From a virus: a stretch of 64,000 nucleotides of DNA. Below the pieces are notes generated by a model. It did not search any database. It was not told where the DNA came from and saw nothing but the letters and a program-made list of their open reading frames with translations. Shown here in pieces: positions 12,788 through 57,869 of the stretch. Position 1 is the stretch's first letter, and the number at the start of each line of letters is the position of its first letter. The stretch is taken from positions 1,017-65,016 of IMG/VR virus record IMGVR_UViG_3300050505_000066; one strand, 5' to 3'. The position numbers and the translations under genes are program-made.

Positions 12788-14749
12788 CTATGTCATAGCC
12801 GCCATCGGAGGTAATTGGCCAGCTGATCCCATTCCTGATTCATTTTCTCCACTATTCATCATAGGAAGTTGAAGAGGTTGTTGTCCTCTTACAATTTGTC
12901 CTGAAGTTGGAATATTGGGTAATTGACCTCCACCAACATTTTGAACCATTTGATTCAATGGTGGTGTAGATTTAAAAATTTCATTTATATTAGGAATTTC
13001 AAACTCTCGGAAAATACCACGCCAGAAATTAACAGCATTAATTTGTGCCATAGCAACTTGACCAAGAGGCGTTCCCATGGCAGTCAAAAGTTGAATCAAA
13101 GCTTGTTGTTTCATACTTTGAGATAGACCAGATGTAGCTCCTACTGCTCTAGCAGCATAATTTGGAACCATATCATAATGATCTAATGTTTCTCGACTAG
13201 CTCCAATTGGTGCTCCAGTGACCGGATCAACTTGTGCTCCATCACCAAGAATCAAAATTTCAACTGGAGTATCTAAGAATTGTTTATCTAAAGCCACAAA
13301 CATATTAGCAAGTGGTTCAAGTGTTGTTTCTTCAAATAATCTAGATTCAAGAAGAAGTCTGGTTCCAGCTGCCTCGCGCCTTCCTACGAATTCACGAGCA
13401 GTTTGACGATCAGGACCTTGTAATCCTTGAACAGCATCATCTACAATTCCTGTACCCATTTGGACGAATTCTTGGATTTGGGCAATTTTATTATCAGCAA
13501 TTGAGAGACCAGCCAAATCTTTCATTAATGGACGAATCATAGCATCAGGATTTCCATCAATCCCAATAAAACGTCCAGGTCTAGCATAAAGATTTCTAGT
13601 ATTTAGATTAGATGCTCGATCATAAAACCAAACAGGATCAATAACAAGATCAGCAGCATCTAGTGATTGATTGATATAACGATTCCCAACTAATTGAAGT
13701 TTTTCGACAGTTTCAGCTTTTCCTGGTGCATAGAAATAATGAGGATCAGGTGTTGGAGCGAAACTTACGAAAGGAAGGAGATTGTGCCAGAAAGGATTTG
13801 GGCGGTTTCGGAATAAATATCTCTTATTTGCGACAGTTAATACACGATTTAAAACGCCGTCTGAAGAAAGTTCGGATGGGATATAGCCCCAAAATTCTAA
13901 TATTTCAATTGGTCTAGAATATCGATCCATCCAGCGAATGGATTCATCATCCATTCCAGCACGTACAGCAAATCTACGAATCATTGACTGGGCATCCGTA
14001 GACTGATAATTGACCCCACCCTCACGCTCTAGCCGAGCTACTTCATTCTTATCAAATATTCCCTCACTCGCGAGGAATCTGATATCATCAAGGTCTAGGA
14101 AATATCTACGAATAACCCATTTCATATCTTTTAGACGTTTTACTCCTGGTTGAGGGAAAAAGTCTAGAAGATCAAGAATTTCGGTTATTGGTCCATCAAA
14201 AGAAGTAATTTCACCTTTTTTGATGCTTTTAACTACACGACCAGAAATTGGGAGTTTATCAACATATTCGATGATTCTTTGTTCTTTTTTACGTTTCCAT
14301 CCGACTTGAGCCACTGCTACTCCATAGAGATCAGCAGTTACTATGAAGTCTGTCATTTTAACGAAGGCATCATCATCCTTCATTTGAGCAGAAACTAGAG
14401 CTTCGCGTTTCCTCGCGGTAGGCATATCATCTGGACCATAACCGAGGAATGTAACAATTGGCCATTTGTTGAGGGATGTGGCTGATTTACGAGCAGCATC
14501 AGCCCAAATGGCTGAGAAAATAAGAGGAATATGGATGTTATTTTTATGAGGATGGAAACGTCCAGTCCAAGTTCCCCTCCAAAGATCATAGAGGCGAGGC
14601 CATTGGATTCGAGTTCCCCCAAAATATTGTTGTGATAACTTCATTCGTGATGTTACAAGATCGATTAATTGATCTCGAAAAGCATCAGGGGTTGGTGCGC
14701 GGTTAATGACTAAACTTGTGTTTGAGCCTCCCGCACTTTGATAAAGCAT
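12788..14749 (-). CDS. Portal protein
   Basis: 653 aa; 'DFFPQPG', 'NPFWHNLLPFVSF', clip-like 'ARPGRFIGIDG' and 'QTAREF' segments; position after terL. Confidence 0.9.
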   Translation of the reverse strand: MLYQSAGGSNTSLVINRAPTPDAFRDQLIDLVTSRMKLSQQYFGGTRIQWPRLYDLWRGTWTGRFHPHKNNIHIPLIFSAIWADAARKSATSLNKWPIVTFLGYGPDDMPTARKREALVSAQMKDDDAFVKMTDFIVTADLYGVAVAQVGWKRKKEQRIIEYVDKLPISGRVVKSIKKGEITSFDGPITEILDLLDFFPQPGVKRLKDMKWVIRRYFLDLDDIRFLASEGIFDKNEVARLEREGGVNYQSTDAQSMIRRFAVRAGMDDESIRWMDRYSRPIEILEFWGYIPSELSSDGVLNRVLTVANKRYLFRNRPNPFWHNLLPFVSFAPTPDPHYFYAPGKAETVEKLQLVGNRYINQSLDAADLVIDPVWFYDRASNLNTRNLYARPGRFIGIDGNPDAMIRPLMKDLAGLSIADNKIAQIQEFVQMGTGIVDDAVQGLQGPDRQTAREFVGRREAAGTRLLLESRLFEETTLEPLANMFVALDKQFLDTPVEILILGDGAQVDPVTGAPIGASRETLDHYDMVPNYAARAVGATSGLSQSMKQQALIQLLTAMGTPLGQVAMAQINAVNFWRGIFREFEIPNINEIFKSTPPLNQMVQNVGGGQLPNIPTSGQIVRGQQPLQLPMMNSGENESGMGSAGQLPPMAAMT

Positions 14750-24490: not shown

Positions 24491-25870
24491 TTGATGCCAA
24501 TTTCAACAGTGGAATTTCGAATGCCCTTTCAGATTCCTATTTTAGATGAACATACATCTATTTTAGGACACAGAAGCTCTGAAAGAATGAGTTGTATTTG
24601 TCCTGAATGTAGACGCCTTTGTCCAAATCAACATTGTCAGTGTAAACAAATTGAGGATTTCATGCCAACAACACCAGTCAATCCATTTCGTAATTTCCTT
24701 TGTCACTATTGTCAGCAAACGAAACCCCCGGAAGAACGTCATATTCCGCCGGCAAGAATTGTTCCTTATAACATGTGCAATGCATGTTTCACACGTCTGA
24801 TCTTTGTTTGTCCAACTTGTCACAATGAAGTTGTTCAAGGAGACAGAACTTCTTTTTCTTACGGTGAAGAACGAATTCAAATATGTCGAGTTTGTTTCAA
24901 TCGCACATATTATTGTTGTGTGAATTGTAATGCCATTAGATCACGAGAACTTCAACCAGGACATTGTGTTTCAGCTAATAGATTGGTTTGTGAAGCTTGT
25001 GTAGAACACTATACAGAATGTGAAAATTGTGGCCGTCTAACTTATCATGACGAAGTGTGTTATGATGATGAAGATGAAGATCACAATCATCCTCTTTGTG
25101 GCAATTGTATGGAGAGACCAAGGCTTCTTATGAGTGACACATTTAATCTCAATCCGTTCCGAAGAAAAGTTGGATTTGAAATCGAATTCTGTTCTCGTGA
25201 TGAACCCAATATCAGAAGCTTTGGTCAAATAAAAGGTGATGGTAGTATCATGCCATCTTCAGGTGATTATGGTTATGAATTTGCCAGCCATATCACTCAA
25301 GGTGACAAACTTTTCGAAATCATTGGAAAGGTTTGTAACCGAATTCGTGCGACAGGCGGTTATGTAAATTCAAGCTGTGGTGTTCATGTTCACCTTGACA
25401 TGAATGGTTCAACTGTAACTCAGAGAAATAACATTACAAGTTGGTGGGGAATCTTTGAAAGAATTTTCTTTGGTATGGTCGCCCCCTCTCGAAGAAACAA
25501 TCAATACACTCGCTCTGTGGGAGACCGATATTCTTCACCAAATGACCGCTACAGAACTCTCAACACTTCAGCATTTTCCAAATTTGGAACATATGAAATT
25601 CGTGTACATCAAGGAAGTCTTTCCTCAGCTAAACTCAAAGATTGGACATTAACTCTTCTGTCCTTCTTCGAAACATTCCAAGATATTCGTCCAACTGAAG
25701 CACGTTTTACTCAAATTCGATCAATGAATGATCGAGAACTCTTGATCTTTTTCTTCCAACAAATCAAGATTCCTCGTCACCTTCAGAAAAACATTCTGAA
25801 GAGAATCCGTACTTACAACGGAAAACCTGAACATCAGTTTCTTAATCTCGCAAAGAAAGGAAAAATTTAA
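24491..25870 (+). CDS. Putative amidoligase (COOH-NH2 ligase type 2) with N-terminal Cys-rich zinc-finger array
   Basis: 'VGFEIEF', 'DGSI', 'GYEFAS', 'SCGVHVHL', 'RYRTLN', 'YEIRVHQGS'; many CxxC pairs in the first ~200 aa. Confidence 0.85.
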   Translation: MMPISTVEFRMPFQIPILDEHTSILGHRSSERMSCICPECRRLCPNQHCQCKQIEDFMPTTPVNPFRNFLCHYCQQTKPPEERHIPPARIVPYNMCNACFTRLIFVCPTCHNEVVQGDRTSFSYGEERIQICRVCFNRTYYCCVNCNAIRSRELQPGHCVSANRLVCEACVEHYTECENCGRLTYHDEVCYDDEDEDHNHPLCGNCMERPRLLMSDTFNLNPFRRKVGFEIEFCSRDEPNIRSFGQIKGDGSIMPSSGDYGYEFASHITQGDKLFEIIGKVCNRIRATGGYVNSSCGVHVHLDMNGSTVTQRNNITSWWGIFERIFFGMVAPSRRNNQYTRSVGDRYSSPNDRYRTLNTSAFSKFGTYEIRVHQGSLSSAKLKDWTLTLLSFFETFQDIRPTEARFTQIRSMNDRELLIFFFQQIKIPRHLQKNILKRIRTYNGKPEHQFLNLAKKGKI

Positions 25871-25873
25871 ATA

Positions 25874-26752
25874 ATGTGCAGCATTAGTGGTTTCATTAGC
25901 TCTCAACCAATCGCAAAAAAGACAGCAAGTCGTCTTTGTTCAGCACTTCTGTTTTATGGCTCTGTTCGTGGTTCTCAAAGTTCTGGTATTTGGATCAACA
26001 ATCATCTGCTCAAGAAGGCTGAATCACCAGATGATTTCATCTATTCACCAGAATTCTCAAATGTATTTGATCGTGGTCCAACAATCGCCCTAATGCACAC
26101 AAGACAACCAACTTCTGGTGGTCTTGGTGATGCTCAAGCTCAGCCTTTTAAGGTAGGAAATACGGTCACAGTTCACAACGGGTATTTCCACAACATCACC
26201 GAACTAAAGAATAAATGGTCTATTCAGAAAAAGTCGGGAGTTGATTCCGAACTCGTAACTCAGTTTATTGAATCATATGGAATCAATATGCTTCCGAAAT
26301 TTCTTGCTTCCTCTGAAGGACCAAGCGCATTTGCAATTCATCACAATGGTGAATTGTATTTAATGCGAGATACCAATCCAATTCATGTTGCAAATCTTGA
26401 CATGAAAAATGGAACCAAACTCACCATTTTCGCTTCCACAGCAGACATCATTCATGATGCTCTTAAATATTGCTGGCTCATTGAATCGAATGTCAGAGCC
26501 AACATGATCAAAGAAGGAATTCTATTTCATCTCAACCGGGAAGGCGTTCTTGAAAAACTCTCAGAGAAAACCTCTTCAAAATTCTATAGTCGAGTATGTC
26601 GAGGCCATTCATCTTATTCCTCATGTGGTGATAACTACCCACATTGGTGGAAAGAGAAAAATCATGGAGTTAAAGACATTGAATCCACCTACGAAAAACA
26701 TCGCAAAAATCAACTCTCTATTGAAAAATGCTATCGGAGCGAATCGGATTAA
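25874..26752 (+). CDS. Class II glutamine amidotransferase (Ntn hydrolase)
   Basis: N-terminal MC, 'RGSQSSG', 'HTRQPT', 'HNG', 'VDSE'. Confidence 0.88.
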   Translation: MCSISGFISSQPIAKKTASRLCSALLFYGSVRGSQSSGIWINNHLLKKAESPDDFIYSPEFSNVFDRGPTIALMHTRQPTSGGLGDAQAQPFKVGNTVTVHNGYFHNITELKNKWSIQKKSGVDSELVTQFIESYGINMLPKFLASSEGPSAFAIHHNGELYLMRDTNPIHVANLDMKNGTKLTIFASTADIIHDALKYCWLIESNVRANMIKEGILFHLNREGVLEKLSEKTSSKFYSRVCRGHSSYSSCGDNYPHWWKEKNHGVKDIESTYEKHRKNQLSIEKCYRSESD

Positions 26753-29700
26753 ACTTCTTAATGAACGTTGTGATCTCATTCTCCAATATATAAGGAGGCT
26801 CAGAAACTATCTTTTTAGTTTCCTGTAAAATTATGCCGCGAATGCCAAAACCTGTAATTTCAACATCAAAAGACTCTAAAATAACATTTGAACAAATTCC
26901 TGGTGATCGAGATATTTTAATCACAGTTGAATCTCGAAATCCAGGCGTCATTCAAGGTTTTAGAGCACGCTTTAATCATCTTGATATTACCCGACTTGAA
27001 CAATTTTTCGATTTATCAGAAGCCTACACTGACGAATTGGATGGTGGATAAATGAGTTCCAAAATCTTTAATAATGCAATGTTACAAGATTCTCTTTTTT
27101 CTGCTAACGAAGAACTTCTAATTGCCTCGCGGCATGTAGACGATCCTGAGATAAGCTTAGAATTAAAAACAATGGCTGATAAGGTGGAGCAATATTTAAA
27201 ATTAGCAGAATCAGAGGGGAGACTTACAACATATAGACACCCCGAATAATTGAATCATATCATGTTAGAGTTTATTTGTCAAGTATTATTTTCATCAAAA
27301 GGAAAATAATTGAAAGCCTATATTATCACCAAAAACTCAAAAAGACACTCAATTGATCTCTTAAAGAAAGCTAAATTGTCACGAATCAAACATCTTGTAA
27401 CTCTTCGTGATGAAGAAAGCCTATTTTATGATCAAATTCAGGTCTTTCAAGTTTTTGGGACCAAGAAACGCATCACAAATCTATTTTGTGAAGATGAAGA
27501 TGTTCTCCAAGTCACGGAGATAACATGAAACATGAAGATGAAGATTTTTTAGAATCAGACTACATCATCAAACCAAATTATTATGAAGAAGAATTTGGAG
27601 ATTTTCTCGATCTAAGGATTCCTAATCCAGATCGAGGTTTCGATACTGAATATACTCTAAATAGCCTCCGAAGCAGTTATGGTTTATCCCAAGCTCGCGC
27701 CAGAAACGTCCTTAATTATTGGCTTTGGGAAAGGACACAGTGTCAATAGAAAGTCTTGATTTGGTAAACAAAGGTGATTGGTTAATTTGTAATCGCGGAC
27801 CTAAAATTCTAAGCACTTCCCCATTCAATGAAACCATCACTAGCGTTGTAGATCATACATTGGAAGGTTGTCTCGCGAAAGTATTGGCGATCAATCCTCC
27901 AATTATGTTATTGAAAATCTATACTAAACCAGGAGACTCAGGACGACTTCGAATCTCTCTCAAATGGGGTGTCGCTGAATGGGGAAAAGCTAATCGTTCA
28001 TATGTTCGAGCTTACCTTAAAAAGAATCCTAAAAAGATTAAACAACCAGAACCTGAATCAGAACCATTCAGAATTCCCGTTATTAAAATCAAAGAAGGCC
28101 CCAAATGAATCAATTTTGGCCAATAACAACTGAACCGCTTCCAAAAGCAAATGCTCCTCCTGATTCTGAAAGTTCAGATTATCGAGTTATTTTTCACCTA
28201 GTTTCTTTTGGAAGAGTTCAAGCACACATCAAACAAGGAAGTTTTATCATCGACATTCTCTCAGGTCACAATTTTGAGGAAGTTTACAATCTAGTTTCCC
28301 AAGAGTATCCTCAAGCCTCTTGGAACCCTCTAGAAAATAGGTAAATCAAATGCCAAATGAAAATAGAACAGAGGTTTTAAGAAGACTTCGTGAAGAATAT
28401 CCAGAATATTGGACCCTCACAAATGAAGGAGATGATCTTTGTATTTCCGTAGAATCAGAAACCGCAGTTAGGATTCAAATAAGAGGAATAACATTCACTC
28501 TTACAGGACAAAATGTTTTTAATTTTTCTCAGCAACTCTTTAACATGTATAATGGCTTTCTAAGACTACCTCCTACAATAAGAACACCTAGAACAACAAC
28601 AACACGAACAACTGGATCAGGATCAACTAGACTAGAACGACGAAATCTTTCAACTTTTGATATGCCAATTTGGGATACTTTAACTCAACCAGTTATTGAA
28701 ATGCCAAATTGGGAACAAATTCCTGTTGAAGAACAAGCTCCAAGAGCAGGAAGATTCGAAGTTCCTGGTCCATCAAGACCAACAGAAGCATCACTTTCAT
28801 CACCAGTTGAAACTGTATGTGGTGATGGGAGTTGTAGTGTCTGTTATCCAGAAGCACATGGTTATTCTATGGATCATGATCCTATGGATATTGATGGTAA
28901 TTCTCTATGAACAAATATAAAAGTACAATCTATTTATATTGCAATGATCTAAAAAGCCGAGAAACAATGAATCTCGGTTGTTGTGAAAAATGTCATTCTG
29001 TTCCAATTGATTTATTTCGACGAACAATTACTACCAATACCTTTTCAATTCAAGGTTATTTTTGTTGCTTTAGAGTCTGGCCAACATCCCTTACAGAACT
29101 AAAAGAAATCGCCCGGAGAAATACATGAGAAAAATAATCTACATAAACTGTGAGGACCTCCCATTTCGAAGAGATGCCACGGAATGTTGTGATGAATGTC
29201 ACTACGGGTCCACAGAAGCATTTGGAGCCTGGGACGATCTTTTTGAAGAAACCTGGGAATTTGAAGATGATAATGAAGAATTTGAAATCCTCACAAAGCA
29301 TTGCTGTGCAAAGCGTTCCCCCCAAACAGATGTGGGTTGGATGTGGCTTCTAGAAGACTTTCTAAAGAAAGAGAAAGAAAGTGAAGCTGCTCTCTCTGTA
29401 GTGGATCGGTAAGAAAATCGTTCCTAGAGCCTGTTAGGGGCCTTTAAAGGCATTCTGGAAGCCTAGATTGGATAGTTTACATGCCTCAAAATCCAGATTT
29501 CGACACTTTCTGGTTTAAATTCTTCTGTTTCCTCGGAGTAGCTCTTTTTATCTTCACATTGTTGGTGTATGGAGGGATCAAATGGATAGAATCGCAATAA
29601 CACCGGAATCTGTTATCCTAAAAGAGTTTAAGGCAAAAGAACGAATGACTATTCGTTCAAATCTTGTAAGAGAAATGCTAAAACACCTCAAAAATCATGA

Positions 29701-31704: not shown

Positions 31705-32136
31705 ATGTATCAAATGAACGAAGCTGAAAAAGAGCTTGTAGTTGCTTTGAGATCAGGGAAATATCAGCAAGGCATAAATTGTTTAAGACCAACTGAAAAT
31801 AGTTTTTGTTGTCTTGGTGTTGCTTGTGATATTTTCCTTCCAGGTTATTGGTCTGTTGAAAATCATAATGGTCACATGGCATGGTATTCAAAAAATACAC
31901 AAGGCTCAGTTTTACCATATGATGTTGTAGTAAAATTAAAATGGTACGATGAACAAGGAACTACAACTATTCCAGTAAATAGAGATGATCTAGATTCTAT
32001 GGGAAGTGATTTTTATGATTTAGCTACATTAAATGATTCAGGTTTTACATTTAATCAAATTGCTGATATCATTGAAGCAGGGCTTGTTTGTCATGACGAT
32101 GAAGAATACGCTTTATTGGAGGAAAAAGATGTCTAA
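31705..32136 (+). CDS. Conserved phage hypothetical protein
   Basis: 'ALRSGKYQQG...FCCLGVACD...LND.G.TFNQIAD' motif family common in phages. Confidence 0.7.
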   Translation: MYQMNEAEKELVVALRSGKYQQGINCLRPTENSFCCLGVACDIFLPGYWSVENHNGHMAWYSKNTQGSVLPYDVVVKLKWYDEQGTTTIPVNRDDLDSMGSDFYDLATLNDSGFTFNQIADIIEAGLVCHDDEEYALLEEKDV

Positions 32137-33325
32137 AATCCGCTGGTTTTGTGAACAACCAGAAAAAGACGCTATTCTCCAAGTTTACGATACTGCATCC
32201 ATGCCTTTCGTTCACGGTGTTGCTGTTATGCCTGACTGTCACTATGGTCGAGGTTCTACCGTGGGAACCGTAGTAGCTACAAAAGGGGCTATCATGCCCG
32301 CCTGTGTGGGGGTTGATATTGGATGTGGGATGATTGCCCTTGAAACAAATCTCACTCTTAAAGATATTAAGCCTTTTCTTTCAGATATTCGAAAAGGAAT
32401 TGAAAGACGAATTCCAACAGGGATTGGGAATTATGGAATGAATTCCAACCTTTCTGAAAGTGCAAGACCACGAATTGAAAAACTTGAAGACTTAAATGAA
32501 AAAGACGGTAAAAATAGAGGAGATTTTGATAAAAACTGGAGAAATGCTCTCGGAAGTCTCGGAGGGGGAAATCATTTTATTGAGATTTGTTTAAATCAAT
32601 ATGAAGCAAATCTTGACGAAACTCCAGTTTGGGTAATTCTCCACTCTGGCTCTCGTGGTGTTGGAAATAGAATTGGAACTTTTTGGACACGATTTGCTCA
32701 AAATCTAGCTAAGAAATATTATTATAACTCATTTCTTCCAAATCCCGATCTCGCATATCTCGTGGAAAAGAGCGAGGAATTCTGGTTCTACATGAAAGAC
32801 CTATTTTGGGCACAAGAATTCGCTCGTCTCAATCGCGAGGAAATGATGGACAGGGTAATCCAAGAACTGACTCACACTGTCTGTAAGACTACTACATCAG
32901 AGTACAACATTCAAGTTCAAAGAATCAATTGTCATCACAATTTTGTTCAGAAGGAAAATTACAGTGGACAAAATTATTGGATCACAAGAAAAGGAGCCAT
33001 TGAAGCAAAAGAAGGGATGTTGGCTCTCATCCCCGGTTCAATGGGAACCCCTTCATACGTTGTTAAAGGACTTGGAAACGAAGGAGCCTTCAATAGTGCC
33101 CCTCACGGTGCGGGAAGGAAAATGAGTCGTGGTAAAGCAAGAAAGATGTTTACTCTCGCCAATCTACAAGACAAGATGCAAGGAATTGAATCAAGGCTCA
33201 GAACTGAGATTCTTGATGAACACCCTGAGGCATACAAAGATATTAACCAAGTTATGGAAGAAGCAAAAACACTTGTCGAACCAGTTCACAAATTAGTGCA
33301 AGTGATTAATGTGAAGGGAGATTAA
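32129..33325 (+). CDS. rtcB: RNA 2',3'-cyclic phosphate/3'-phosphate--5'-OH ligase RtcB
   Basis: 'MPDCHYG', 'VGVDIGCG', 'GGGNHFIE', 'HSGSRG', 'HHN', 'HGAGR', 'DEHPEAYK'; start ATG 32129 with GGAGG RBS. Confidence 0.95.
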   Translation: MSKIRWFCEQPEKDAILQVYDTASMPFVHGVAVMPDCHYGRGSTVGTVVATKGAIMPACVGVDIGCGMIALETNLTLKDIKPFLSDIRKGIERRIPTGIGNYGMNSNLSESARPRIEKLEDLNEKDGKNRGDFDKNWRNALGSLGGGNHFIEICLNQYEANLDETPVWVILHSGSRGVGNRIGTFWTRFAQNLAKKYYYNSFLPNPDLAYLVEKSEEFWFYMKDLFWAQEFARLNREEMMDRVIQELTHTVCKTTTSEYNIQVQRINCHHNFVQKENYSGQNYWITRKGAIEAKEGMLALIPGSMGTPSYVVKGLGNEGAFNSAPHGAGRKMSRGKARKMFTLANLQDKMQGIESRLRTEILDEHPEAYKDINQVMEEAKTLVEPVHKLVQVINVKGD

Positions 33326-36049: not shown

Positions 36050-36799
36050 ATGATAAACCAAAAGATCGCTGAAGATAATTGCATTCTTCGTGCTCAAGTT
36101 GGTTCTAAAGCTCACGGTCTTAACATTGAGGGAACAGATGATACAGACGAGATGGGAATTTGTATTCCTCCTCCTGAATATGTGATTGGTCTTAAACCTT
36201 TTGAGCAGTGGGTTTACAGAACCCAACCCGAGGGAGTTAGAAGTGGTCCCGGTGATCTTGATCTTACGATCTATTCTCTTAAGAAGTATGTAAAGCTTGC
36301 AGCAGGAGGAAATCCATCCATCTTGATGTTGTTGTTTCTTCCATCATATCAATTTAAACATTATCTTGCTGAAGATTTGATTAAACACCGAGAATGGTTC
36401 ATTTCTAAAAGGGCGCTTAAAGCATATCTTAATTATATGATCGCTCAAAAAGAAAGACTTTTTGGGGAAAGAGGTCAAAAACGAGTTAATCGGCCTGAAT
36501 TAGTTGAAGAGTTCGGTTTCGATGTAAAGTACGCTATGCATGTTATTCGTCTTGGACTTCAAGGGCAAGAACTAGCAAAAACTCATAATATTTCATTACC
36601 AATGAATGAAGTGGATAAGGGTTGTTGTTTAGCAATTCGAAAAGGACGATGGTCTCTTATAGAAATTCGTCAATATTATGAATCTTTAAGAACTAAATTA
36701 GAATATGAAATTGATGAAGGAGACCTTCCCGATGAACCAAATCACAATCGAATTGATAATTGGTTAGTTGATGTTCACCAAGAGTATTGGAGACTTTAA
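36050..36799 (+). CDS. DNA polymerase beta-superfamily nucleotidyltransferase (PF10127-like)
   Basis: 'VGSKAHGL...DDTDEMG', 'GNPSIL', 'KYAMHVIRL'. Confidence 0.85.
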   Translation: MINQKIAEDNCILRAQVGSKAHGLNIEGTDDTDEMGICIPPPEYVIGLKPFEQWVYRTQPEGVRSGPGDLDLTIYSLKKYVKLAAGGNPSILMLLFLPSYQFKHYLAEDLIKHREWFISKRALKAYLNYMIAQKERLFGERGQKRVNRPELVEEFGFDVKYAMHVIRLGLQGQELAKTHNISLPMNEVDKGCCLAIRKGRWSLIEIRQYYESLRTKLEYEIDEGDLPDEPNHNRIDNWLVDVHQEYWRL

Positions 36800-37202
36800 A
36801 AGAAAGGGTTTAAGTGAAACAGGAAATTGCTGTTGGTCTAAATAAAGAAACTGCTGATCTTCTCCGTGATTTAGCTTCAAAGATTGGTGTGACAGTAGAT
36901 CATCTTTGGGGTGTACTTGTGAAGCAAGCCCCAATTTATGGGTGGACTATTCTTTCCCTTGGAATTCCTCTTTTGTTCGGATGGATTTTTTGGTTTAGAT
37001 GGTTGGGCTGGCTTGAGAGGACAATAAATAGTAAAAAAGAAAAACATCAATATTATGAAAGTGATCCTCACTATGTTGGAGCAGTAGTAAGTGCAATTTT
37101 ATTAGTAACTGGAACTTTGATATGGGTTTTTAATCTTCCTACAGTTTTTGGTTGTTTATTCAATCCTGAATATTGGGCACTTAAACAAATTTGGAAGTAA
37201 AG

Positions 37203-37766
37203 ATGATTAAAAATGATAAATGGATTCTGAATCATTGTAACTCAACCGATCGTCTCATTGAACCCTTTGAAGTTCAAAAAGAAAAAGGGATTTCGTGGGG
37301 TGTTTCCTCGTTTGGGTATGATCTTCGACTTGCAGATGAATTCAAGATATGTAATGGTGGAGAATATTTTCAACCAGGATCAGCACGGATAATTGATCCA
37401 AAAAACTTTGATCCTAAACTTTTTGAGGATTATAAAGATGATTTTTGTATTATCCCTCCTCATGGTTTCGTTTTAGGTAGGAGTGTTGAGTATCTTCGAA
37501 TTCCACGAAATATTATGACAGTTTGTGTGGGTAAATCTACTTATGCTAGATGTGGGATTATTCTCAATGTGACTCCTCTTGAACCGGAGTGGGAGGGTTA
37601 CGTTACCTTGGAGATTTCTAATACGACTCCACTTCCCGCTAAGATATATGCCAACGAGGGAATAGCCCAAATTCTCTTCTTTGAAGGTGAAGAACCTTGG
37701 ACATCATATGCTGATAAAAAAGGAAAGTATCAAGGACAGAAAGGGATAACACTTCCACGTTTGTGA
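37203..37766 (+). CDS. dcd: dCTP deaminase
   Basis: 'SSFGYDLRL', '[10 protein letters not shown]', 'PLEPEWEG', 'GKYQGQ'. Confidence 0.95.
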
Positions 37767-37974: not shown

Positions 37975-38649
37975 GTGGAATTAACAGAATTTATAGAAAA
38001 ACAAAAAGAAAATTTGAGGAGGGGGATAGCAGAACTTCAAAACCCTCTAGCCGAAGAAAAGAAAATTGAGTTTACTCCTTGGCCAAAGATAAGTCGTTTT
38101 AATCGTGAAATATGTATCACGGAGAAAATTGATGGCACAAATTCAGCTATTGGAATCACCGATAACGGGGAAGTTTATGCTCAATCTCGCAACCGCATTC
38201 TTGAGCCGGGAAAATCTGACAATTACGGTTTTGCTGGATGGGTCCAAAAACATAAAGAAAGCCTTAAATTACTTGGGCCTGGAGTCCACTTCGGGGAATG
38301 GTATGGGGTTGGAATTGGTCGTGGATATGGACTTTCAAAAAGAGTATTTGCCCTCTTTAATGTTAAAAGGTGGAGAGAAGAGAAAGAGAATTTAATTTTT
38401 CAATCTTTGTGGGGACAAAATATAGATATTCGAACTGTTCCAGTCCTTTATGAAGGACCTTGGTGTGATCCTAAATTTGGGGATTTCATGCCTCCCAAGA
38501 TTCTTTATCAACTCGGAGCACACGGTTCAAAAGCTGAACCGGGATATGATCGCCCTGAGGGAATTGTAATTTTTCATAAAGCCAGCCAAGCGATGTTCAA
38601 AATCACCTTAGAAAAGGATTCTGAATGGAAGGAACAAAGCAAAACTTAG
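37975..38649 (+). CDS. ATP-dependent RNA ligase (Rnl2-like adenylation domain)
   Basis: 'TEKIDGTN' (KxDG), 'FGEWYG', 'FALFNV', 'EGIVI'. Confidence 0.85.
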   Translation: MELTEFIEKQKENLRRGIAELQNPLAEEKKIEFTPWPKISRFNREICITEKIDGTNSAIGITDNGEVYAQSRNRILEPGKSDNYGFAGWVQKHKESLKLLGPGVHFGEWYGVGIGRGYGLSKRVFALFNVKRWREEKENLIFQSLWGQNIDIRTVPVLYEGPWCDPKFGDFMPPKILYQLGAHGSKAEPGYDRPEGIVIFHKASQAMFKITLEKDSEWKEQSKT

Positions 38650-39604: not shown

Positions 39605-39883
39605 ATGAAAGTTCTTGGAAATCGAATTCTAGTAAAGAAGATTGATCCACCCAAACCAGAATCTTCACTCATTGAAGTTATTCAATTCGAACAAGAAGAA
39701 TCTCAATTCGCTCTTGTTCTTGGTGTTGGTAATGGGCCTCAAGTAGACCCCGAGGTGACAAAGGGAGATACTGTTGTAATCAAGCCCTATTCAGGTGCTC
39801 CTTTAAAAGTGAACATCAAAGGAAAGGATGTTGAAGCTCATATGTTAGCAGCTGAAGATGTTTTGGCGGTAGTTTTAGTATGA
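39605..39883 (+). CDS. groES: GroES-like co-chaperonin
   Basis: 'LGNRILVK', 'VLGVGNG', 'GDTVV', 'EDVLAV'; the mobile loop is divergent. Confidence 0.8.
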   Translation: MKVLGNRILVKKIDPPKPESSLIEVIQFEQEESQFALVLGVGNGPQVDPEVTKGDTVVIKPYSGAPLKVNIKGKDVEAHMLAAEDVLAVVLV

Positions 39884-40250: not shown

Positions 40251-40787
40251 ATGATAATCGAACCAATCCATAATTCCACCCAAGTCGAACTTATGCGTCA
40301 GATTTACAATGAGAACCGACAATACATGGAAACAAAAGGACCATTACCAGAACGCACCCGTGAGGCTCAACTTGAATGGTGGGATTCATTAGATCATGAT
40401 AAGGTAAAGGCATGGTTACATTATGATTTATTTGAAAGACTCTTTTTATCAGATCATAATGATGAACGAAAACTAATTGGTTTTTCAATGCTTCAAAACC
40501 GTGGATCATTTTCAACTCCCATGTTTGCAATTAAAAAAGAATACCATGGCAAGGGGTATGGTCGAGAATTCATAAAGTGGTATCTCGACCGAGCATCGCG
40601 ACCCCTTGCCGGTTCTCAACTTCAATCTAATAAGGCGATTTGTCATTTGAATAAGGAGTTTGGGTGGAAAATTCTTTGTTCCCATAGTGGTGTAGATCAT
40701 TTATATCATCCCGGTCCTAACTATTGGATAACTTTACATTTTTTAGATGTTGTAAAATTTCATCATCCAGAGGAGAATAACAATTAA
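40251..40787 (+). CDS. GNAT-family N-acetyltransferase
   Basis: Acetyl-CoA loop 'YHGKGYGRE' and 'NKAICHLNKEFGW'. Confidence 0.75.
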   Translation: MIIEPIHNSTQVELMRQIYNENRQYMETKGPLPERTREAQLEWWDSLDHDKVKAWLHYDLFERLFLSDHNDERKLIGFSMLQNRGSFSTPMFAIKKEYHGKGYGREFIKWYLDRASRPLAGSQLQSNKAICHLNKEFGWKILCSHSGVDHLYHPGPNYWITLHFLDVVKFHHPEENNN

Positions 40788-41913
40788 TTTCAATCTCGAT
40801 CTTTGTGAATCATATTCCGAAGAAATTGAACAGGCAATCATAAGAGCCGTTCGTAATCATGCCTATATTCTAGGTCCTGAAACCCAAGCCTTCGAAGAGG
40901 AATTCGCTTCATATTGTGGGCAGCGATACGCTGTCACTGTGAACAGCGGAACGGATGCAATTCTAATTGCCCTCCAAGCCCTCGGGATAGGTCCAGGCGA
41001 CGAGGTTATATCCCCTGCCCACAATGTCGCTTATACCGCCCTTGCCGTTAATCGTCTTGGGGCAAAAAATGTCTTCGTTGACATTGACCCCTTGACAATG
41101 CTCATGGATTGTGATAGAATCCAAGATGTCATTACAGGATCGACGAGGGCGATTGTTCCGGTTCACTTGTATGGGCAAATGGTTAATATGAAACGAGTTA
41201 GGGACATCGCCCGCGCCAATAACCTAATGGTGGTCGAAGATGCTGCTCAAGCTCATGGTGCTCTTTATGATGGACACCCACCTGGATATTTTAGTCATGC
41301 TGTTGCTTATTCTTTTTACCCTACGAAAAATCTCGGATCGTTAGGTGAGGCTGGTGGGATTACGACTAATATTCCCTCTGTAGCGAAGGCCGCGAGGCAA
41401 CTACGGGATGGTGGGCGTTCTGATCGGTACATCCATAGTTTACCGGGTGTGAATTCGGTGATGGATGAAATCCAGGCAGCTGTTCTTAGGGTAAAACTTA
41501 AACATCTTGATCTTTCAAATAGGAAAAGATGTAAGTTAGCATTTGAATATATTAAAGAATTAAGTCGAATTGAAGATATTAGACTTCAAGTTTGGCCACA
41601 AAAAGTTTCTCCAGTCTATCATTTATTTGTAATTCGTATTAAAAGACGAACAGCACTTATGCAATGGTTAAAAGAAAATGAGGTTCCTACACTAATTCAC
41701 TACCCTTTGACCGTTCCTGAACAACCAGTTTTTGTCTCAGAGTGTTATGAACAGGGACCATTTCCACACGCTCAAGAAGCCTCACGAACTGTATTAAGTC
41801 TACCCATGTTTCCAGATATGTCTAAAAAACAACAGGATTGGATAATTGGAAAAATTAAAGCTTTCTTTGATCTGCCCAACAATCGGAAGAAGCTCACTTG
41901 CTCAACTTCTTGA
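40783..41913 (+). CDS. DegT/DnrJ/EryC1/StrS PLP-dependent sugar aminotransferase (probable AUU start at 40783)
   Basis: 'EDAAQAHGA', 'SFYPTKNLG', 'GEAGG', 'MDEIQAA'; the conserved N-terminal region continues in frame 52 codons upstream of the track's GTG start. Confidence 0.9.
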   Translation: MNFNLDLCESYSEEIEQAIIRAVRNHAYILGPETQAFEEEFASYCGQRYAVTVNSGTDAILIALQALGIGPGDEVISPAHNVAYTALAVNRLGAKNVFVDIDPLTMLMDCDRIQDVITGSTRAIVPVHLYGQMVNMKRVRDIARANNLMVVEDAAQAHGALYDGHPPGYFSHAVAYSFYPTKNLGSLGEAGGITTNIPSVAKAARQLRDGGRSDRYIHSLPGVNSVMDEIQAAVLRVKLKHLDLSNRKRCKLAFEYIKELSRIEDIRLQVWPQKVSPVYHLFVIRIKRRTALMQWLKENEVPTLIHYPLTVPEQPVFVSECYEQGPFPHAQEASRTVLSLPMFPDMSKKQQDWIIGKIKAFFDLPNNRKKLTCSTS

Positions 41914-42451
41914 ACAAGTCTATCCTCAACTTGAAGAAGGAGACGAATTCATTGTTGTCGGAGATGGACCCCAACCTACCGCTATGGAAATGTGTCTCCC
42001 GTACGATCCAGAAAAAGTTGTTTATCGAGAATTGCCTGAACATGTTGGAAACTACGGCTGTGATCCTTGTGATCTCGGCATTAGCATTGCTCGCGGTGAT
42101 TTTGTTTGGTTTATTGGCGATGATGATGTTTGTCCTGACAATGTGTTTAGTCTCATACGGTCTCGCGTAGTTGAGGCTCCTGATGTTCCACATCTATTTG
42201 CTATGTGGCATACTGGGAGTTTTTTCCCAGGTGACAGATTTATCTGTTGTCAAACATCTGGTCAACAACTTGTAGTTCCAAGAGATATGGACCGAATGCC
42301 AAGAATGGGAGATGTGGCACAAGAACAATGGCCTGTATCAGATTGGGTATTTATGGATAAGGTTGCCTCGGCATGGAATAGAGAAATAAAGTTTCATCGT
42401 GATGATGTGATTTGTATATTGCCTGTGATGAATCAAGGGAGGATGGTTTGA
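41846..42451 (+). CDS. Glycosyltransferase family 2 (GT-A)
   Basis: 'LICPTIGR', 'IVVGDG', 'ARGDFVWFIGDDD'. Confidence 0.85.
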   Translation: MEKLKLSLICPTIGRSSLAQLLEQVYPQLEEGDEFIVVGDGPQPTAMEMCLPYDPEKVVYRELPEHVGNYGCDPCDLGISIARGDFVWFIGDDDVCPDNVFSLIRSRVVEAPDVPHLFAMWHTGSFFPGDRFICCQTSGQQLVVPRDMDRMPRMGDVAQEQWPVSDWVFMDKVASAWNREIKFHRDDVICILPVMNQGRMV

Positions 42452-49982: not shown

Positions 49983-52359
49983 ATATTTATTCGTTCTCCC
50001 TCATAAACCATCTGAAGGAATGTCAGCTTGGTTCTGGAAAGTTGTTTCACAAGAATGTGGAATTCAAACCACTGATTGTGAAGTAATTTACATGTTGGAT
50101 TCAGTTCCTAAAGGAGCATCAGGTCGGGCTACTAAAGAACAAATACGAGCATCATGGGATAGATTTTCTAAAGAGATAGAGGAATCTGAAGCTAGAGTCG
50201 TCATTCCTTTAGGTAGTCAACCTCTTTATTTTCTCACTGGTATTCAAAAATCTATCTTTGATGCTCGTGGTTATGTTATTACCAATAAATTCTTCCGTCC
50301 AATTGAATACGATTCATGGGAACAATTTGGAGAATACAAGACCGGTAACAAAAAATTGGGTCGGATTAAGGGCGATCCAAGATATAAGTGGATAACAAAA
50401 TCAAGTGAAGGACTCCTGGGAAGTGACTTTCAAGGAATAGTCATTCCCACCTTCACTCTTGAATATATCCGAACGTCTGCATTCTCCTGTAAACCCTCCC
50501 TTAAAGAGGATATTCTTCGTGCAAAAAGAGCCAGCAAGGGAACACTTAAACTAGTTGATGAAAACCTTGTTTACTATACGGATTTTTCACATGTAGAAAC
50601 AGAAGATGGAACTCGAACATCCGTATCTTTAAATCTCAAACAAATTCCATGGTCTAAAGATTTGATTGCTTTAGACATTGAAACACATGGAATTGATAAT
50701 GATGTAATTGATCGAGTTTCTATTAGTGATGGACATATAACTGCCTCGCTTGCGTGGTCGAATGAAGTTAGATCATTATTAAATGATATTTTAACTCTTT
50801 CAGAACCTAAGTTTGTTTTTCATAATTCACCATTCGATGTTCCACGTCTAATTCAACATGGTGTGAACATCACAACTCGAATTTTAGAGAATCAGATTTT
50901 TGACACGATGTTCGGGGCAGTTATTCTTCAACCTGATCTTCATAAAGGATTAGGTCGCTGTGCTTCTGTGTATTTAGATTGTCAGTTGTGGAAAGATCAG
51001 AACGAAAGTAATCCAATTTTTTATAGTGCTAAGGATGCCTTCATAACCGCTTGGTTAGCTAGACAAGAGATCAAGGTTATGAAGACCCTTGGAACTTATG
51101 ATCTCTTCACAAAGAAGATAATGCCAGCAATTCCAGTTCTCACGGAAATGACACAAAAGGGCATACGAACAAATCGTCCTTATGCTGAGAAATGGACTAA
51201 AAAATTAGTCCGAAGGCAACTAAAATATGAGCAACTATGGGCAAAGAAATTCCCTAATACCGATCCTCATTCTTCTCAATCTGTACAAAAATTATTGTAT
51301 GGTGAATGGGGACTACCTATACAAAGAACTAGAGAGGGCGGGATTTCGGTTGATGAACTTTCACTTGTAAAACTTAAATATTACATTAACGCTCCTCCAG
51401 AAGAACTTGTTAAAGTTGTAAGTAGTCGAACATTAGACCTTCTTCTCAAGCTCCGTGATGTTTCTAAAATGTTAAGTACCTATGTTCAACCTGTTGCAGA
51501 GAGTGAATCGATTTGGGTTCATCCAAGTTACCTTCCGATTTCCAAAGATGCTGAGGCTGGTAAGTCGAATAAAATGACCAGTAAAGGAAATACTTCTACT
51601 GGTCGCCTAGCAACTTATAATCCAAATATTGGAAATCAACCAAAGAAAGCACGAGTTCTTTATGTTCCTGATAATGAAGATATGTGCTTCCTCGAAGCGG
51701 ATTGGAAGTCCGCTGAATCATATGTAATGGCTTATTCTGCGAACGATAAACGTCTTTTAGATGATCTAAAAATAGGAATTCATGAACAGAATGCCGAACG
51801 ATTTGGAATCGACAGAGATACAGCTAAGAATGTTTATTATGCACAACAATACCTTGCTGGACCATCTAAAGTTAATGAGATGATTCTGGAACAAACTCAT
51901 AAATATGTTCCAGTTGAAGAATGCAAACGAATTATGTATGGTCTTCAAGAATATTACTACCAAACAACTGCCTTTAAAAGGCACCTAGTTCAACTTTGTG
52001 AAACACAGAAATACATAAAGAACCCATTCGGACGAATTAGATTTTTTCATGATGGACGGACACCCGCTGCGGTCGATTTTTGGCCACAATCCATCGTCGC
52101 AGATTGCCTTTGGGAAATCATCCCCGAGGTAGCTAGAATGGCTAAAAGTCTTGGAGGACGTTTTACAACTACTGTTTATGATAGTGTGTTAATCCAAGTG
52201 CCACGACAGGTCATACAAGAAACTGCAGAACGCCTTATGGGGATAATGCAGCGGCGCTTTGAAATCGTAGCACCCTTGTTTTCTATTCCATGTGAGTTAA
52301 AATTTGGACAACCTGGAGCTTCGTGGGGGGAATTAAGTGTTGACAGATTATTCGAATAA
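49975..52359 (+). CDS. Family A DNA polymerase: degenerate UDG-like N-domain + 3'-5' exonuclease + polymerase
   Basis: 'VIPLGSQPL...SIFDARG...VIPTF' UDG-like; ExoI 'LDIET'; 'TGRL'; motif A 'DWKSAE'; motif B 'RDTAKNVYYAQQY'; motif C 'VYDS'. Confidence 0.9.
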   Translation: MSKYLFVLPHKPSEGMSAWFWKVVSQECGIQTTDCEVIYMLDSVPKGASGRATKEQIRASWDRFSKEIEESEARVVIPLGSQPLYFLTGIQKSIFDARGYVITNKFFRPIEYDSWEQFGEYKTGNKKLGRIKGDPRYKWITKSSEGLLGSDFQGIVIPTFTLEYIRTSAFSCKPSLKEDILRAKRASKGTLKLVDENLVYYTDFSHVETEDGTRTSVSLNLKQIPWSKDLIALDIETHGIDNDVIDRVSISDGHITASLAWSNEVRSLLNDILTLSEPKFVFHNSPFDVPRLIQHGVNITTRILENQIFDTMFGAVILQPDLHKGLGRCASVYLDCQLWKDQNESNPIFYSAKDAFITAWLARQEIKVMKTLGTYDLFTKKIMPAIPVLTEMTQKGIRTNRPYAEKWTKKLVRRQLKYEQLWAKKFPNTDPHSSQSVQKLLYGEWGLPIQRTREGGISVDELSLVKLKYYINAPPEELVKVVSSRTLDLLLKLRDVSKMLSTYVQPVAESESIWVHPSYLPISKDAEAGKSNKMTSKGNTSTGRLATYNPNIGNQPKKARVLYVPDNEDMCFLEADWKSAESYVMAYSANDKRLLDDLKIGIHEQNAERFGIDRDTAKNVYYAQQYLAGPSKVNEMILEQTHKYVPVEECKRIMYGLQEYYYQTTAFKRHLVQLCETQKYIKNPFGRIRFFHDGRTPAAVDFWPQSIVADCLWEIIPEVARMAKSLGGRFTTTVYDSVLIQVPRQVIQETAERLMGIMQRRFEIVAPLFSIPCELKFGQPGASWGELSVDRLFE

Positions 52360-53119
52360 TGATACAATTGATGTTGAAATTATGCATGACAATACTTCTG
52401 GAGGAACAAAAGAACTTTACGCTCGACCTGGAAAATTTCTTGGAATCGATGGACCAGAAGAAGATAAAAGGATTCTTGAAAGAATGAATAAGCAAACTAC
52501 AATCTACTTATCCGGGCCAATGAGCGGATTGCCAGATTATAATTCTGCAGAGTTCGCTAAATACGCAGAAATCTATCGTCAACAAGGATTCCGGGTTCTT
52601 TCCCCTCCCGAATTAGATGCCGGGGATTGGTCTAAGGATTATGCATTCTACATTAAAAGGGATATTGAAGTCCTTGTAAAAGAACACGTCAGTCGTATCT
52701 ATCTTCTTCCTGGTTGGCAAGATTCTCGTGGAGCTAGACTCGAACACCACATTGCAGAGCTTCTTGGAATTGGAATTTACGATGCTGTAACAGGTAAGCC
52801 ATATAAAGAAACAGTTGCTCAAGAAGCAAATAGAATTGTAAATGGAGACCGCCGAGGGAACTATGGTTCTCCCCTCAAAGATTTTGGTCGTACCTCGGGC
52901 ATGCTTAATGCATTGTTAGCACATAAGCTTCGAGAGAAATTATCTGAAGAAGATGTTTCTTTAATTATGATTTGTGTGAAACTCAGTCGTTTAGCAAATT
53001 CACCTGATCATAGAGATTCCCTCGTGGATATTTGTGGGTATGCTTTAACGTATGAACTAGTTCAGAGTGAACGAAAGGATTATAGTGGGACTGTGGTTTC
53101 TGGATCAAGCACGAAATAG
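52337..53119 (+). CDS. DUF4406 (nucleoside deoxyribosyltransferase-like) + DUF6378-like fusion with a portal-like N-terminal peptide
   Basis: 'IYLSGPMSGLPDYN', 'W.DSRGARLE', 'GDRRGNYGSP', 'DSLVDICGYA'. Confidence 0.75.
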   Translation: MLTDYSNNDTIDVEIMHDNTSGGTKELYARPGKFLGIDGPEEDKRILERMNKQTTIYLSGPMSGLPDYNSAEFAKYAEIYRQQGFRVLSPPELDAGDWSKDYAFYIKRDIEVLVKEHVSRIYLLPGWQDSRGARLEHHIAELLGIGIYDAVTGKPYKETVAQEANRIVNGDRRGNYGSPLKDFGRTSGMLNALLAHKLREKLSEEDVSLIMICVKLSRLANSPDHRDSLVDICGYALTYELVQSERKDYSGTVVSGSSTK

Positions 53120-56231: not shown

Positions 56232-57869
56232 ATGGAATCAATGTCATTTTTCGCACAAACAATCATGGAACAAAAGTATAGCCACACACGAACAAATGGT
56301 GAGAAAGAACAATGGCACCACATAGCACGTCGAGTAGCGCGACATGTTATGGGTGCCATTAACGCCTCTGATGAACTTGTCAAAGAGATTGCGGAGATAA
56401 TTGAACAACGAAAATTTATTCCTGGGGGTAGATATCTAGCTGCCTCGGGCAGGCAGTATCATCAAACACAGAATTGTATCCTTCTCAAGGCCGAGGATTC
56501 ACGAGAAGGATGGGCTGATATAATGCAGAAGTCCACTTTAGCTCTTATGACAGGAGCAGGGATAGGATGCGATTACTCAGATATCCGACCCGAGAATAAA
56601 CCAATTAGAAAAACGGGTGGAGTCTCTACAGGCCCTATTGCCCTTATGCAAATGGTTAACGAAGCTGGTCGAGGCATCATGCAGGGGGGTTCACGTCGCT
56701 CAGCAATTTGGGCGGGACTTAGTTGGAAGCATGCGGATATTCAAAAATTCATCACATTAAAAAATTGGATTCCAGAAGTTCGGGAGATGAAGGAAAAGGA
56801 TTTTAATTTCCCGGCAACAATGGATGGAACAAATATCTCAGTTATTCTTGATGATGAATTTTTCAAGGCTTTTCATGATGATAAAAATCCTTTAAACTCT
56901 CATGCTCAATCTGTTTATTGGTCTACTCTTCGTCAGATGTTAAAAACCGCTGAACCAGGATTTAGTATTGATATAGGGAAAAATAAGGGAGAAACATTAA
57001 GGAATGCGTGTACTGAAGTATCTTCAGGAGATGATAGTGATATTTGTAATCTTGGTTCTATTAATTTGGCTAGGATCACATCCTTAGAAGAAATGAAGAA
57101 AGTTGTAAATCTTGCGACTGCTTTTCTTACAGCTGGAACTGTTTATAGTGATGTTCCATATTCAAAACTAGATCAGATTAGGAATAAGAATAGACGCCTT
57201 GGTCTTGGTCTTATGGGTCTTCATGAATGGCTTCTTGTTAGAGATGAAAAATATGGATTTAATGAAGACCTTCAAAAATATTTAGAAATTTATGGAGATA
57301 GTACACATTACGCACATGAATGGCAAGATAAGTGGGACCTTTCAAGATCAATCAAAACAAGAGCAATTGCACCGACTGGGACTATTGGGATCATTGGTGA
57401 AACTACAACAGGAATTGAACCAATTTTCTGTGTAGCATTTAAAAGACGATATCTTAAATATCACACCTGGAATTATCAATATGTTATTGATCCAACAGCT
57501 AAAAGATTAATTGAAAATGGTATTCATTCAGATTCTATTGAAGACGCTTATGTTCTCGCAAGTGATGTAGAACGTCGAGTTGCATTTCAATCATGGGTTC
57601 AGAAATATGTAGACCATGCAATTTCTTCTACGATCAATCTTCCAGCATGGGGAAGTGAATTGAATAACGATGGAACTGTTTCTAAATTTGGTAATATGCT
57701 TATCAATTATCTTCCTAATCTACGCGGTTTTACAGTGTATCCTGATGGAGGACGAGGAGGACAACCATTGACACCCGTGAAGTATAGTGTAGCCGTGAAT
57801 CATGCAGATAAAGTGTTTGAAGAGATTAATGTATGTGATATAACTAAAGGTGGTAGCTGTGGAAGTTAA
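56232..57869 (+). CDS. nrdJ: Ribonucleotide reductase, probably class II (AdoCbl-dependent)
   Basis: 'NACTE' catalytic motif, 'CNLGSINL', 'APTGT', 'ISSTINLP', C-terminal Cys pair; no nrdB gene in the window. Confidence 0.85.
   Translation: MESMSFFAQTIMEQKYSHTRTNGEKEQWHHIARRVARHVMGAINASDELVKEIAEIIEQRKFIPGGRYLAASGRQYHQTQNCILLKAEDSREGWADIMQKSTLALMTGAGIGCDYSDIRPENKPIRKTGGVSTGPIALMQMVNEAGRGIMQGGSRRSAIWAGLSWKHADIQKFITLKNWIPEVREMKEKDFNFPATMDGTNISVILDDEFFKAFHDDKNPLNSHAQSVYWSTLRQMLKTAEPGFSIDIGKNKGETLRNACTEVSSGDDSDICNLGSINLARITSLEEMKKVVNLATAFLTAGTVYSDVPYSKLDQIRNKNRRLGLGLMGLHEWLLVRDEKYGFNEDLQKYLEIYGDSTHYAHEWQDKWDLSRSIKTRAIAPTGTIGIIGETTTGIEPIFCVAFKRRYLKYHTWNYQYVIDPTAKRLIENGIHSDSIEDAYVLASDVERRVAFQSWVQKYVDHAISSTINLPAWGSELNNDGTVSKFGNMLINYLPNLRGFTVYPDGGRGGQPLTPVKYSVAVNHADKVFEEINVCDITKGGSCGS

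Follow-up and report, generated by a model that had tools for sequence, protein, structure and literature searches.

A predicted phage module for N-acylation and transfer of a 3-amino sugar in an uncultured SU10-like podophage

Results

The DNA analyzed here (the window, 64,000 nucleotides (nt) in full) covers nearly all of IMG/VR record IMGVR_UViG_3300050505_000066, a 65,612-bp virus that CheckV rates as 100% complete and that its head genes, encoding a major capsid protein (MCP), portal, and adaptor, identify as an SU10-like podophage. We examine a cassette of three plus-strand open reading frames (ORFs) at exactly 40251-42451, which encode, in this order, a GNAT-fold N-acyltransferase, a DegT-family sugar aminotransferase dependent on pyridoxal phosphate (PLP), and a short glycosyltransferase of family GT2. 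An initial annotation had placed three overlapping genes within the same limits, and had read them as a phage counterpart of WecE and WecD acting together with a soluble GT2. The observation on the three genes is confirmed, with a corrected start for DegT, and the interpretation is partly supported: enzyme families, motifs, and linkage argue for a phage module that would build and transfer an N-acylated amino sugar. The 7.5 kb around the cassette has no nucleotide match among 50,697 GenBank phages.

Whether the genes overlap depends on where DegT begins. When only ATG, GTG, and TTG are allowed as starts, its ORF opens at GTG 40939, leaving a gap of 151 nt after the GNAT gene (40251-40787, 178 amino acids (aa)), and gene callers in three other assemblies likewise placed the start there, at a cost of some 50 conserved residues at the N-terminus. 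The open frame reaches back to 40756, however, and orthologs in three relatives start with M-NFNLD, for which the corresponding column of the window is ATT-AAT-TTC-AAT-CTC-GAT from 40783. A Shine-Dalgarno sequence, GAGGAG, can be read on the plus strand at 40770-40775, 7 nt before this ATT, which shares bases with the GNAT stop (ATTAA). The identical ATT is found in four independent assemblies from different samples, which excludes a sequencing error. We take ATT to be the fixed non-canonical start of DegT, giving a 376-aa protein (40783-41913), and propose that translation probably proceeds by termination-reinitiation from the GNAT gene. With this start, GNAT and DegT overlap by 5 nt and DegT and GT2 by 68 nt, so the overlapping arrangement of the initial annotation stands with ATT and is lost with the conventional start codons. 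A frameshift fusion of GNAT and DegT was considered and rejected because the orthologs carry their own ATG at the ATT position.

The DegT protein matches PF01041 at 349.2 bits (cut-off 19.8; E 3.9e-104), with residues 12-358 aligned to profile positions 4-359, or 356 of 360. Five phage orthologs show no variation at K182 (in SFYPTKN), the PLP-binding lysine, or at D153 (in EDAAQAHG), the aspartate paired with the nitrogen of the pyridine ring. Ranked by bit score in a sequence comparison with aminotransferases in the PDB, the C-3 enzymes DesV (292 bits), QdtB (267), and WbpE (223) come first, followed by the aminotransferase 5u1z (222), perosamine synthase (160), and the C-4 enzymes ArnB (143-158) and WecE (128). 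DegT also falls below the NCBIfam equivalog cut-offs for WecE (NF008687, 207.2 against 375; TIGR02379, 157.9 against 434.85) and PseC (TIGR03588, 213.5 against 423.5). The WecE-like assignment is thus not borne out, and DegT is most likely an aminotransferase of the C-3 type represented by QdtB, FdtB, DesV, and WbpE.

The nearest cellular homologs of DegT, at 40-46% identity, are spread across many phyla. Within 3 kb of the 80 nearest, we find an FdtA-type 3,4-ketoisomerase in 17, an LbH (hexapeptide) acetyltransferase in 12, and a GFO/IDH/MocA oxidoreductase in 6; the best single homolog, from a member of the Pyrinomonadaceae (46% identity), has a GFO/IDH/MocA oxidoreductase and an LbH acetyltransferase as flanking genes. 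Two routes to 3-amino sugars are known, one through FdtA-type isomerases and the other through GFO-type oxidoreductases. In a quick tree, nine phage DegTs group in a single clade separate from these 80 homologs (SH-like approximate likelihood ratio test, SH-aLRT, 98), and phages have therefore long retained the gene. Among the 50,697 GenBank phages, tblastn found DegT matches in 16 records only, none exceeding 37.6% identity.

The GNAT protein matches PF00583 marginally (21.2 bits, cut-off 20.7), and its AlphaFold model (predicted local distance difference test score, pLDDT, 92) adopts the GNAT fold, aligning with SpeG at Z 16.9 (root-mean-square deviation 1.9 over 142 residues). It carries the acyl-CoA motif HGKGYGRE, in which G100 and G102 are nearly invariant (family pattern R/Q-x-x-G-x-G/A). 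The sugar N-acyltransferases PseH (Z 15.1) and FdhC (PDB 5ktc, Z 14.9) also match; PseH does so at the level of fold only, about 2 Z units below SpeG and with unrelated GNATs ranking around it. No NCBIfam family, WecD and PseH models included, matches at E <= 0.01, and the WecD-like identity suggested earlier was not borne out either. As a pointer to sugar acyltransferases the fold search was rejected, since sugar enzymes were not singled out. The family is small and mostly phage-borne, with 53 representative clusters among 1.84 billion proteins, and 5 of the 53 are fusions in which the short GT2 is N-terminal and the GNAT C-terminal.

The third gene (41846-42451, 201 aa) starts at TTG, preceded by a Shine-Dalgarno AGGA at 41834-41837, and encodes a minimal soluble GT2. 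The match to PF00535 scores 30.5 bits (cut-off 23.3), and the AlphaFold model (pLDDT 96) has the GT-A fold. Foldseek pairs it with WrtF (E 2e-11, template modeling (TM) score 0.76), the leading structural matches being WrtF, AvpGT, SpsA, and TarP, with TarS and RmlT also matched; in BFVD, the nearest fold matches include multi-domain glycosyltransferases of giant viruses. Across 33 family members, little or no variation is seen at D40, the DDD at 92-94, and D166. Homologs open 3-5 residues before LSLICPT, which favors the start at 41846; a start at TTG 41867, used by gene callers (194 aa), was rejected because it loses part of the conserved first strand. The protein is acidic, with an isoelectric point (pI) of 4.5 and a net charge of -14 (family median pI 5.5).

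About 30 relatives of the short GT2 have the same length, and all are metagenomic. Scans of IMG/VR with single GT2 and DegT proteins returned no match, whereas a tighter GT2 alignment did retrieve relatives; a broad GT2 alignment held no conserved stretch to search with. Neither the short GT2 nor the GNAT has a tblastn match in the GenBank phages, prophage-type records included. None of the three proteins has a membrane segment, the highest Kyte-Doolittle 19-mer across them being 1.33, and Pfam scans of the genome found no Gtr-type membrane glycosyltransferase, flippase, or periplasmic transferase families. The description of the GT2 as short and soluble, and of the cassette as a set of soluble enzymes unlike Gtr serotype conversion, therefore holds.

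Profile searches of the complete genome found no 4,6-dehydratase, FdtA ketoisomerase, or sugar nucleotidyltransferase, and no oxidoreductase, GFO type included, occurs among the larger phage ORFs covered by Pfam scans. Since the phage is without these enzymes, it must draw on a 3-keto sugar nucleotide of its host. By its gene content the module is incomplete, and the phage would be limited to the last steps of amination, acylation, and transfer, dependent on the host for the rest.

About 15 related uncultured SU10-like podophages carry the module, which takes three gene orders and occupies at least five genome positions. In each of the 11 relatives examined first, GNAT and the short GT2 lie next to each other, and DegT is present at nine distinct loci. 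The orders are GNAT-DegT-GT2, GNAT-GT2-DegT (G005), and a GT2~GNAT fusion followed by DegT; a DegT follows each of the two fusion genes that were looked up. Of the 32 clade records sampled with a length of at least 30 kb, seven carry DegT, every one of them with a GT2 within about 1.2 kb and six with a GNAT-family gene beside it (Fisher p = 5e-5, uncorrected for shared ancestry). Examination of gene neighborhoods in related phages, which the initial annotation had proposed, thus finds the genes strongly co-conserved. The cassette is accessory in the clade and occurs in roughly one fifth of its phages, with a clear member of the short GT2 family in 5 of the 32 records and a more distant one in a sixth; some GT2 is present in 14 of the 32. 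Further natural GT2~GNAT fusions occur in the clade of phages with the GT-B-fold glycosyltransferase described below: in G023 (26630-28689, minus strand) and G020 (27329-28303, plus strand), GT2 and GNAT share one frame, of 399 and 373 aa respectively, and the G023 fusion is followed by DegT.

The genomic positions of the cassette are diverse. It lies between genes for Cpn10 and a PD-(D/E)XK nuclease in the window, G006, and L004; after DNA polymerase and lysin genes in G001, L009, and L010; immediately before the large terminase (TerL) in G002/G003; between a terminase-adjacent gene and the portal in L006; immediately upstream of the portal, with a second GT2 in between, in L007; and between the portal and capsid genes in G005 and L008. 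In total, five relatives carry it within the TerL-portal-MCP operon, at three different sites. This pattern of linkage, fusion, and relocation indicates that the three genes are one real, mobile functional module.

We identify a fourth sugar enzyme of this phage that the initial annotation had overlooked, a glycosyltransferase of the GT-B fold (6559-7821, minus strand, 420 aa) encoded between the capsid and adaptor genes. It has weak matches to PF00534 and PF13524, and its ESM Atlas model groups with viral GT-B clusters (TM 0.88); a PDB sequence search with it gave nothing useful. The surrounding head and head-neck genes, all on the minus strand, encode the adaptor (5604-6557), an SU10-type MCP (9255-10286), and the portal (12788-14749). 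Of 79 related IMG/VR loci, 72 have the order TerL-portal-MCP-GT-B-adaptor; a capsid-adjacent GT-B is present on at least 140 IMG/VR contigs, and the order MCP-GT-B-adaptor is kept in every cassette-bearing relative for which that region is available. GenBank phages yield weak, partial matches to the GT-B in 8 records, at no more than 30% identity, among them Streptomyces phages Zuko and KimJongPhill (annotated glycosyltransferase), two Klebsiella phages, and two uncultured records; none of the 8 belongs to a cultured SU10-type phage. We infer that the GT-B, as a core gene of the clade, is a partner of the cassette.

Other sugar genes stand in relatives at the same places as the cassette, namely an extra GT2, a GT17-like gene, and Methyltransf_24. 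A pair of Methyltransf_24 and Glyco_transf_17-like genes accompanies GNAT and the short GT2 in the portal-to-capsid interval of L007 (12223-13568) and L008 (8586-9952), with no DegT nearby, and suggests a different, methylated variant of the glycan. Two further proteins are encoded near the capsid genes of the window. The protein in the scaffold position (10385-11551, minus strand) has a Thr/Pro-rich stretch of about 50 residues near its N-terminus, and a 108-aa ORF between portal and scaffold (11662-11988, minus strand) resembles an Ig-like (Big_2-type) domain on visual inspection. Each of the two is a candidate for a glycosylation target or a decoration protein.

Discussion

We propose that the phage takes over a sugar pathway of its host at the last steps. 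DegT would convert a host-made, nucleotide-linked 3-keto sugar into a 3-amino sugar, its substrate being either a deoxythymidine diphosphate (dTDP)-3-keto-6-deoxyhexose supplied by an FdtA/QdtA-type isomerase or a uridine diphosphate (UDP)-3-keto-N-acetylglucosamine (GlcNAc)-type sugar supplied by a WbpB/GnnA-type oxidoreductase. The GNAT would then N-acylate the amine of this product, and the GT2 would move the finished sugar, in the cytoplasm, to an acceptor, the likeliest being a glycan or protein of the virion. The capsid-adjacent GT-B, as the core enzyme of the clade, may start glycosylation, with the cassette as one among several accessory sets that can replace one another and so vary the sugar coat. 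The identity of the sugar and the order of the steps are what we infer from the enzyme families. As a whole, from host 3-keto sugar to transfer that is probably onto the virion, we hold this model tentatively and give it slightly less than an even chance.

A virion glycan or protein is the best-supported, though unproven, acceptor, because a core glycosyltransferase in the head-neck operon combined with swappable sets of soluble tailoring enzymes is what would be expected for glycosylation of the particle. Several observations weigh against parts of this proposal. The phage DegT clade is nested, in the quick tree, in neither the FdtA-associated nor the GFO-associated subclade, and the tree therefore points to neither class of sugar. 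From the ATT start it follows that DegT is translated weakly or in a coupled manner in this phage. Three relatives carry GNAT and GT2 without DegT in the DNA seen, which for L006 and L008 spans 12-17 kb each, so a phage DegT is not necessarily the source of the GNAT substrate. The GNAT fold is generic, with SpeG, PAT, and protein acetyltransferases scoring as well as or better than sugar acyltransferases, and therefore leaves a choice of substrates. In structure the GT2 is closest to polysaccharide, teichoic-acid, and nucleoside glycosyltransferases, and protein glycosyltransferases are not among its neighbors. Finally, the cassette lies in replication or lysis modules in the window and in five other relatives, that is, outside the head operon in half of its positions, and position alone is therefore no argument for virion proteins.

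The structural neighbors of the GT2 raise the possibility that the module instead remodels a glycan of the host envelope during infection, such as O-antigen, capsule, teichoic acid, or S-layer glycan. The acetamido sugar would be placed on a cytoplasmic lipid-linked or polymer intermediate, blocking superinfection or preventing progeny from attaching to debris. WrtF, SpsA, TarS, RmlT, and the prophage-encoded TarP are all enzymes of polysaccharide or wall-teichoic-acid synthesis, and the nearest cellular homologs of DegT are housed in surface-glycan clusters. We nonetheless regard this account as unlikely, if the most serious of the alternatives. The module comes with no membrane segment, flippase, or polymerase; no integrase is found among all ORFs of at least 300 aa, which suggests a probably lytic phage. 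Beside the 80 bacterial DegT homologs there is no member of the short GT2 or GNAT families, and both families share the lack of matches in GenBank phages, prophage-type records included, noted above. The account would also leave the clade-wide GT-B in the head-neck operon unexplained.

A cytoplasmic target of another kind, whether a host protein, RNA, or a small molecule such as a nucleoside or immune signal, appears improbable to us. The GNAT would in that case acetylate the final target, as its fold matches to protein and polyamine as well as antibiotic acetyltransferases would allow, and the persistence of GNAT with GT2 in relatives that carry no DegT would be accounted for, as might the RNA-repair neighbors in the window (RtcB, RlaP, and RNA ligase). 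These RNA-repair genes are not retained beside the cassette in relatives, however, and a DegT of the C-3, nucleotide-sugar type is linked to the GNAT/GT2 pair in most lineages, fusion forms included. We found no precedent for such a system.

The initial annotation had also considered DNA as the acceptor, and a hypermodification with an acetamido sugar could shield the phage genome from restriction and CRISPR. Pfam scans around the cassette agree with the setting it described, among genes of nucleotide and DNA metabolism, including a dCTP-deaminase-like gene (37191-37766, plus strand), a dCMP deaminase starting at 43434, and a DUF4406/DUF6378 fusion at 52337. Phages are known to glycosylate DNA with GT-A enzymes that resemble TarP, and such clusters can occur close to structural genes (Pyle et al. 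2023, bioRxiv 10.1101/2023.12.21.572611), and the nucleoside glycosyltransferase AvpGT is among the structural matches of the GT2. Known O-glycosylation of phage DNA requires a hydroxylated base, however. A ThyA homolog makes such bases (5-hydroxymethylcytosine, 5hmC; 5-hydroxymethyluracil, 5hmU; 5-hydroxycytosine, 5hoC) (PMC13326640), and the alternative route combines a C5-methylase with a TET-like 5mYOX (Pyle et al. 2023, bioRxiv 10.1101/2023.12.21.572611). PF00303 (Thymidylat_synt), PF12851 (Tet_JBP), and PF00145 (DNA_methylase) have no match at E <= 1 in the complete genome, and the genome profile search agrees with the earlier remark that no hydroxymethylase is recognizable. In relatives, the cassette enters the head operon together with O-methyltransferase-like and further glycosyltransferase genes, as is typical of glycan building, and the strong acidity of the GT2 (pI 4.5) offers soft evidence in the same direction. 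With no known route to a hydroxylated base in the genome, DNA modification is disfavored, and we consider it very unlikely. Slightly less likely still is that the 201-aa GT-A enzyme, supplied with a host keto sugar, attaches a 3-acetamido sugar to DNA or another nucleic acid by chemistry that dispenses with the known hydroxylated pyrimidines, which, if true, would be a new class of nucleic-acid hypermodification.

The proposed route from a 3-keto sugar to an acylated product has close parallels in bacteria. The FdtA/FdtB/FdhC and QdtA/QdtB/QdtC pathways, which make dTDP-3-acylamido-3,6-dideoxyhexoses for O-antigen and S-layer glycans, likewise use a C-3 DegT aminotransferase followed by N-acylation, and FdhC, a fold match of the phage GNAT (5ktc, Z 14.9), is itself a GNAT-fold enzyme that acylates dTDP-3-amino-3,6-dideoxygalactose. 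In contrast to these pathways, the phage lacks RmlA/RmlB as well as an FdtA/QdtA ketoisomerase, its GNAT is not orthologous to FdhC, WecD, or PseH, and its glycosyltransferase is a phage-specific GT2 of 201 aa. The WbpB/WbpE/WbpD pathway of Pseudomonas and GnnA/GnnB, which act by 3-oxidation and 3-transamination of UDP-GlcNAc-type sugars, are related through WbpE, a close solved relative of the phage DegT (223 bits), but the phage acyltransferase is a GNAT instead of an LbH enzyme and no oxidoreductase is present among the scanned phage ORFs. WecE/WecD, which serve enterobacterial common antigen (dTDP-Fuc4NAc), follow the same logic of DegT and GNAT acting on a nucleoside diphosphate-keto-deoxysugar, with the difference that WecE acts at C-4 and the phage DegT is of the C-3 type by sequence.

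Viruses, too, offer precedents for decoration of the particle. In the viosamine and bacillosamine genes of Mimivirus and the capsid glycosyltransferases of chloroviruses, a viral DegT-type aminotransferase, an N-acetyltransferase, and a GT-A enzyme decorate the particle. The giant viruses encode whole sugar pathways, dehydratases included, whereas this phage has the last three steps only. Among phages, virion glycosylation by phage glycosyltransferases is established in mycobacteriophages Che8 and Rita (Freeman et al. 2023, as covered in PMC11256854). As far as that account goes, their system likewise consists of soluble cytoplasmic phage glycosyltransferases with no flippase and with accessory, variable genes, and it produces a glycan coat on capsid proteins, to which the proposed product of our cassette would be similar. 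Che8 and Rita are actinophage siphoviruses with glycosyltransferases of other families; the SU10-like podophage adds an amino-sugar tailoring pair.

If the virion is indeed the acceptor, glycan coats would not be confined to mycobacteriophages and would be a standard, strain-variable trait of a large uncultured SU10-like clade. The accessory cassettes would then be a phage counterpart of the O-antigen gene swaps of bacteria, which would matter for phage stability, for how defense systems or grazers recognize phages, and for how immunogenic therapeutic phages are. Whatever the acceptor, glyco-engineering stands to gain a compact three-enzyme route that uses a host 3-keto sugar nucleotide, a minimal GT-A glycosyltransferase of 201 aa, and a natural GT2~GNAT fusion. 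The ATT-started DegT is, in addition, a natural example of a non-canonical and probably coupled start that has become fixed in a phage population.

Other features of the genome

Several further genes were noted in the window. A GroES-like co-chaperonin, Cpn10 (39605-39883, plus strand, E 6e-10), is encoded about 370 nt before the cassette and occupies the same place in G006 and L004. An RNA-repair set extends across the early operon on the plus strand and consists of an RtcB ligase (32033-33325), an RlaP nucleotidyltransferase (36050-36799), and an Rnl-type RNA ligase (37975-38649), with the dCTP-deaminase-like gene placed between RNA-repair genes; RtcB is also present in the relative G006. 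The fusion of DUF4406, which is nucleoside 2-deoxyribosyltransferase-like, with DUF6378 (52337-53119, plus strand) adjoins the DNA polymerase gene, and the same fusion, or a dGTP_diPhyd_N protein, is found directly upstream of the cassette in L009 and L010. At 24491-26752 (plus strand), in the early region, an Amidoligase_2 protein (459 aa) adjoins a class-II glutamine amidotransferase domain protein (292 aa, GATase_6/7 with no SIS domain), and the two may form a peptide- or metabolite-ligating pair. A ribonucleotide reductase of 545 aa (56232-57869, plus strand) carries a B12-dependent class II insertion domain.

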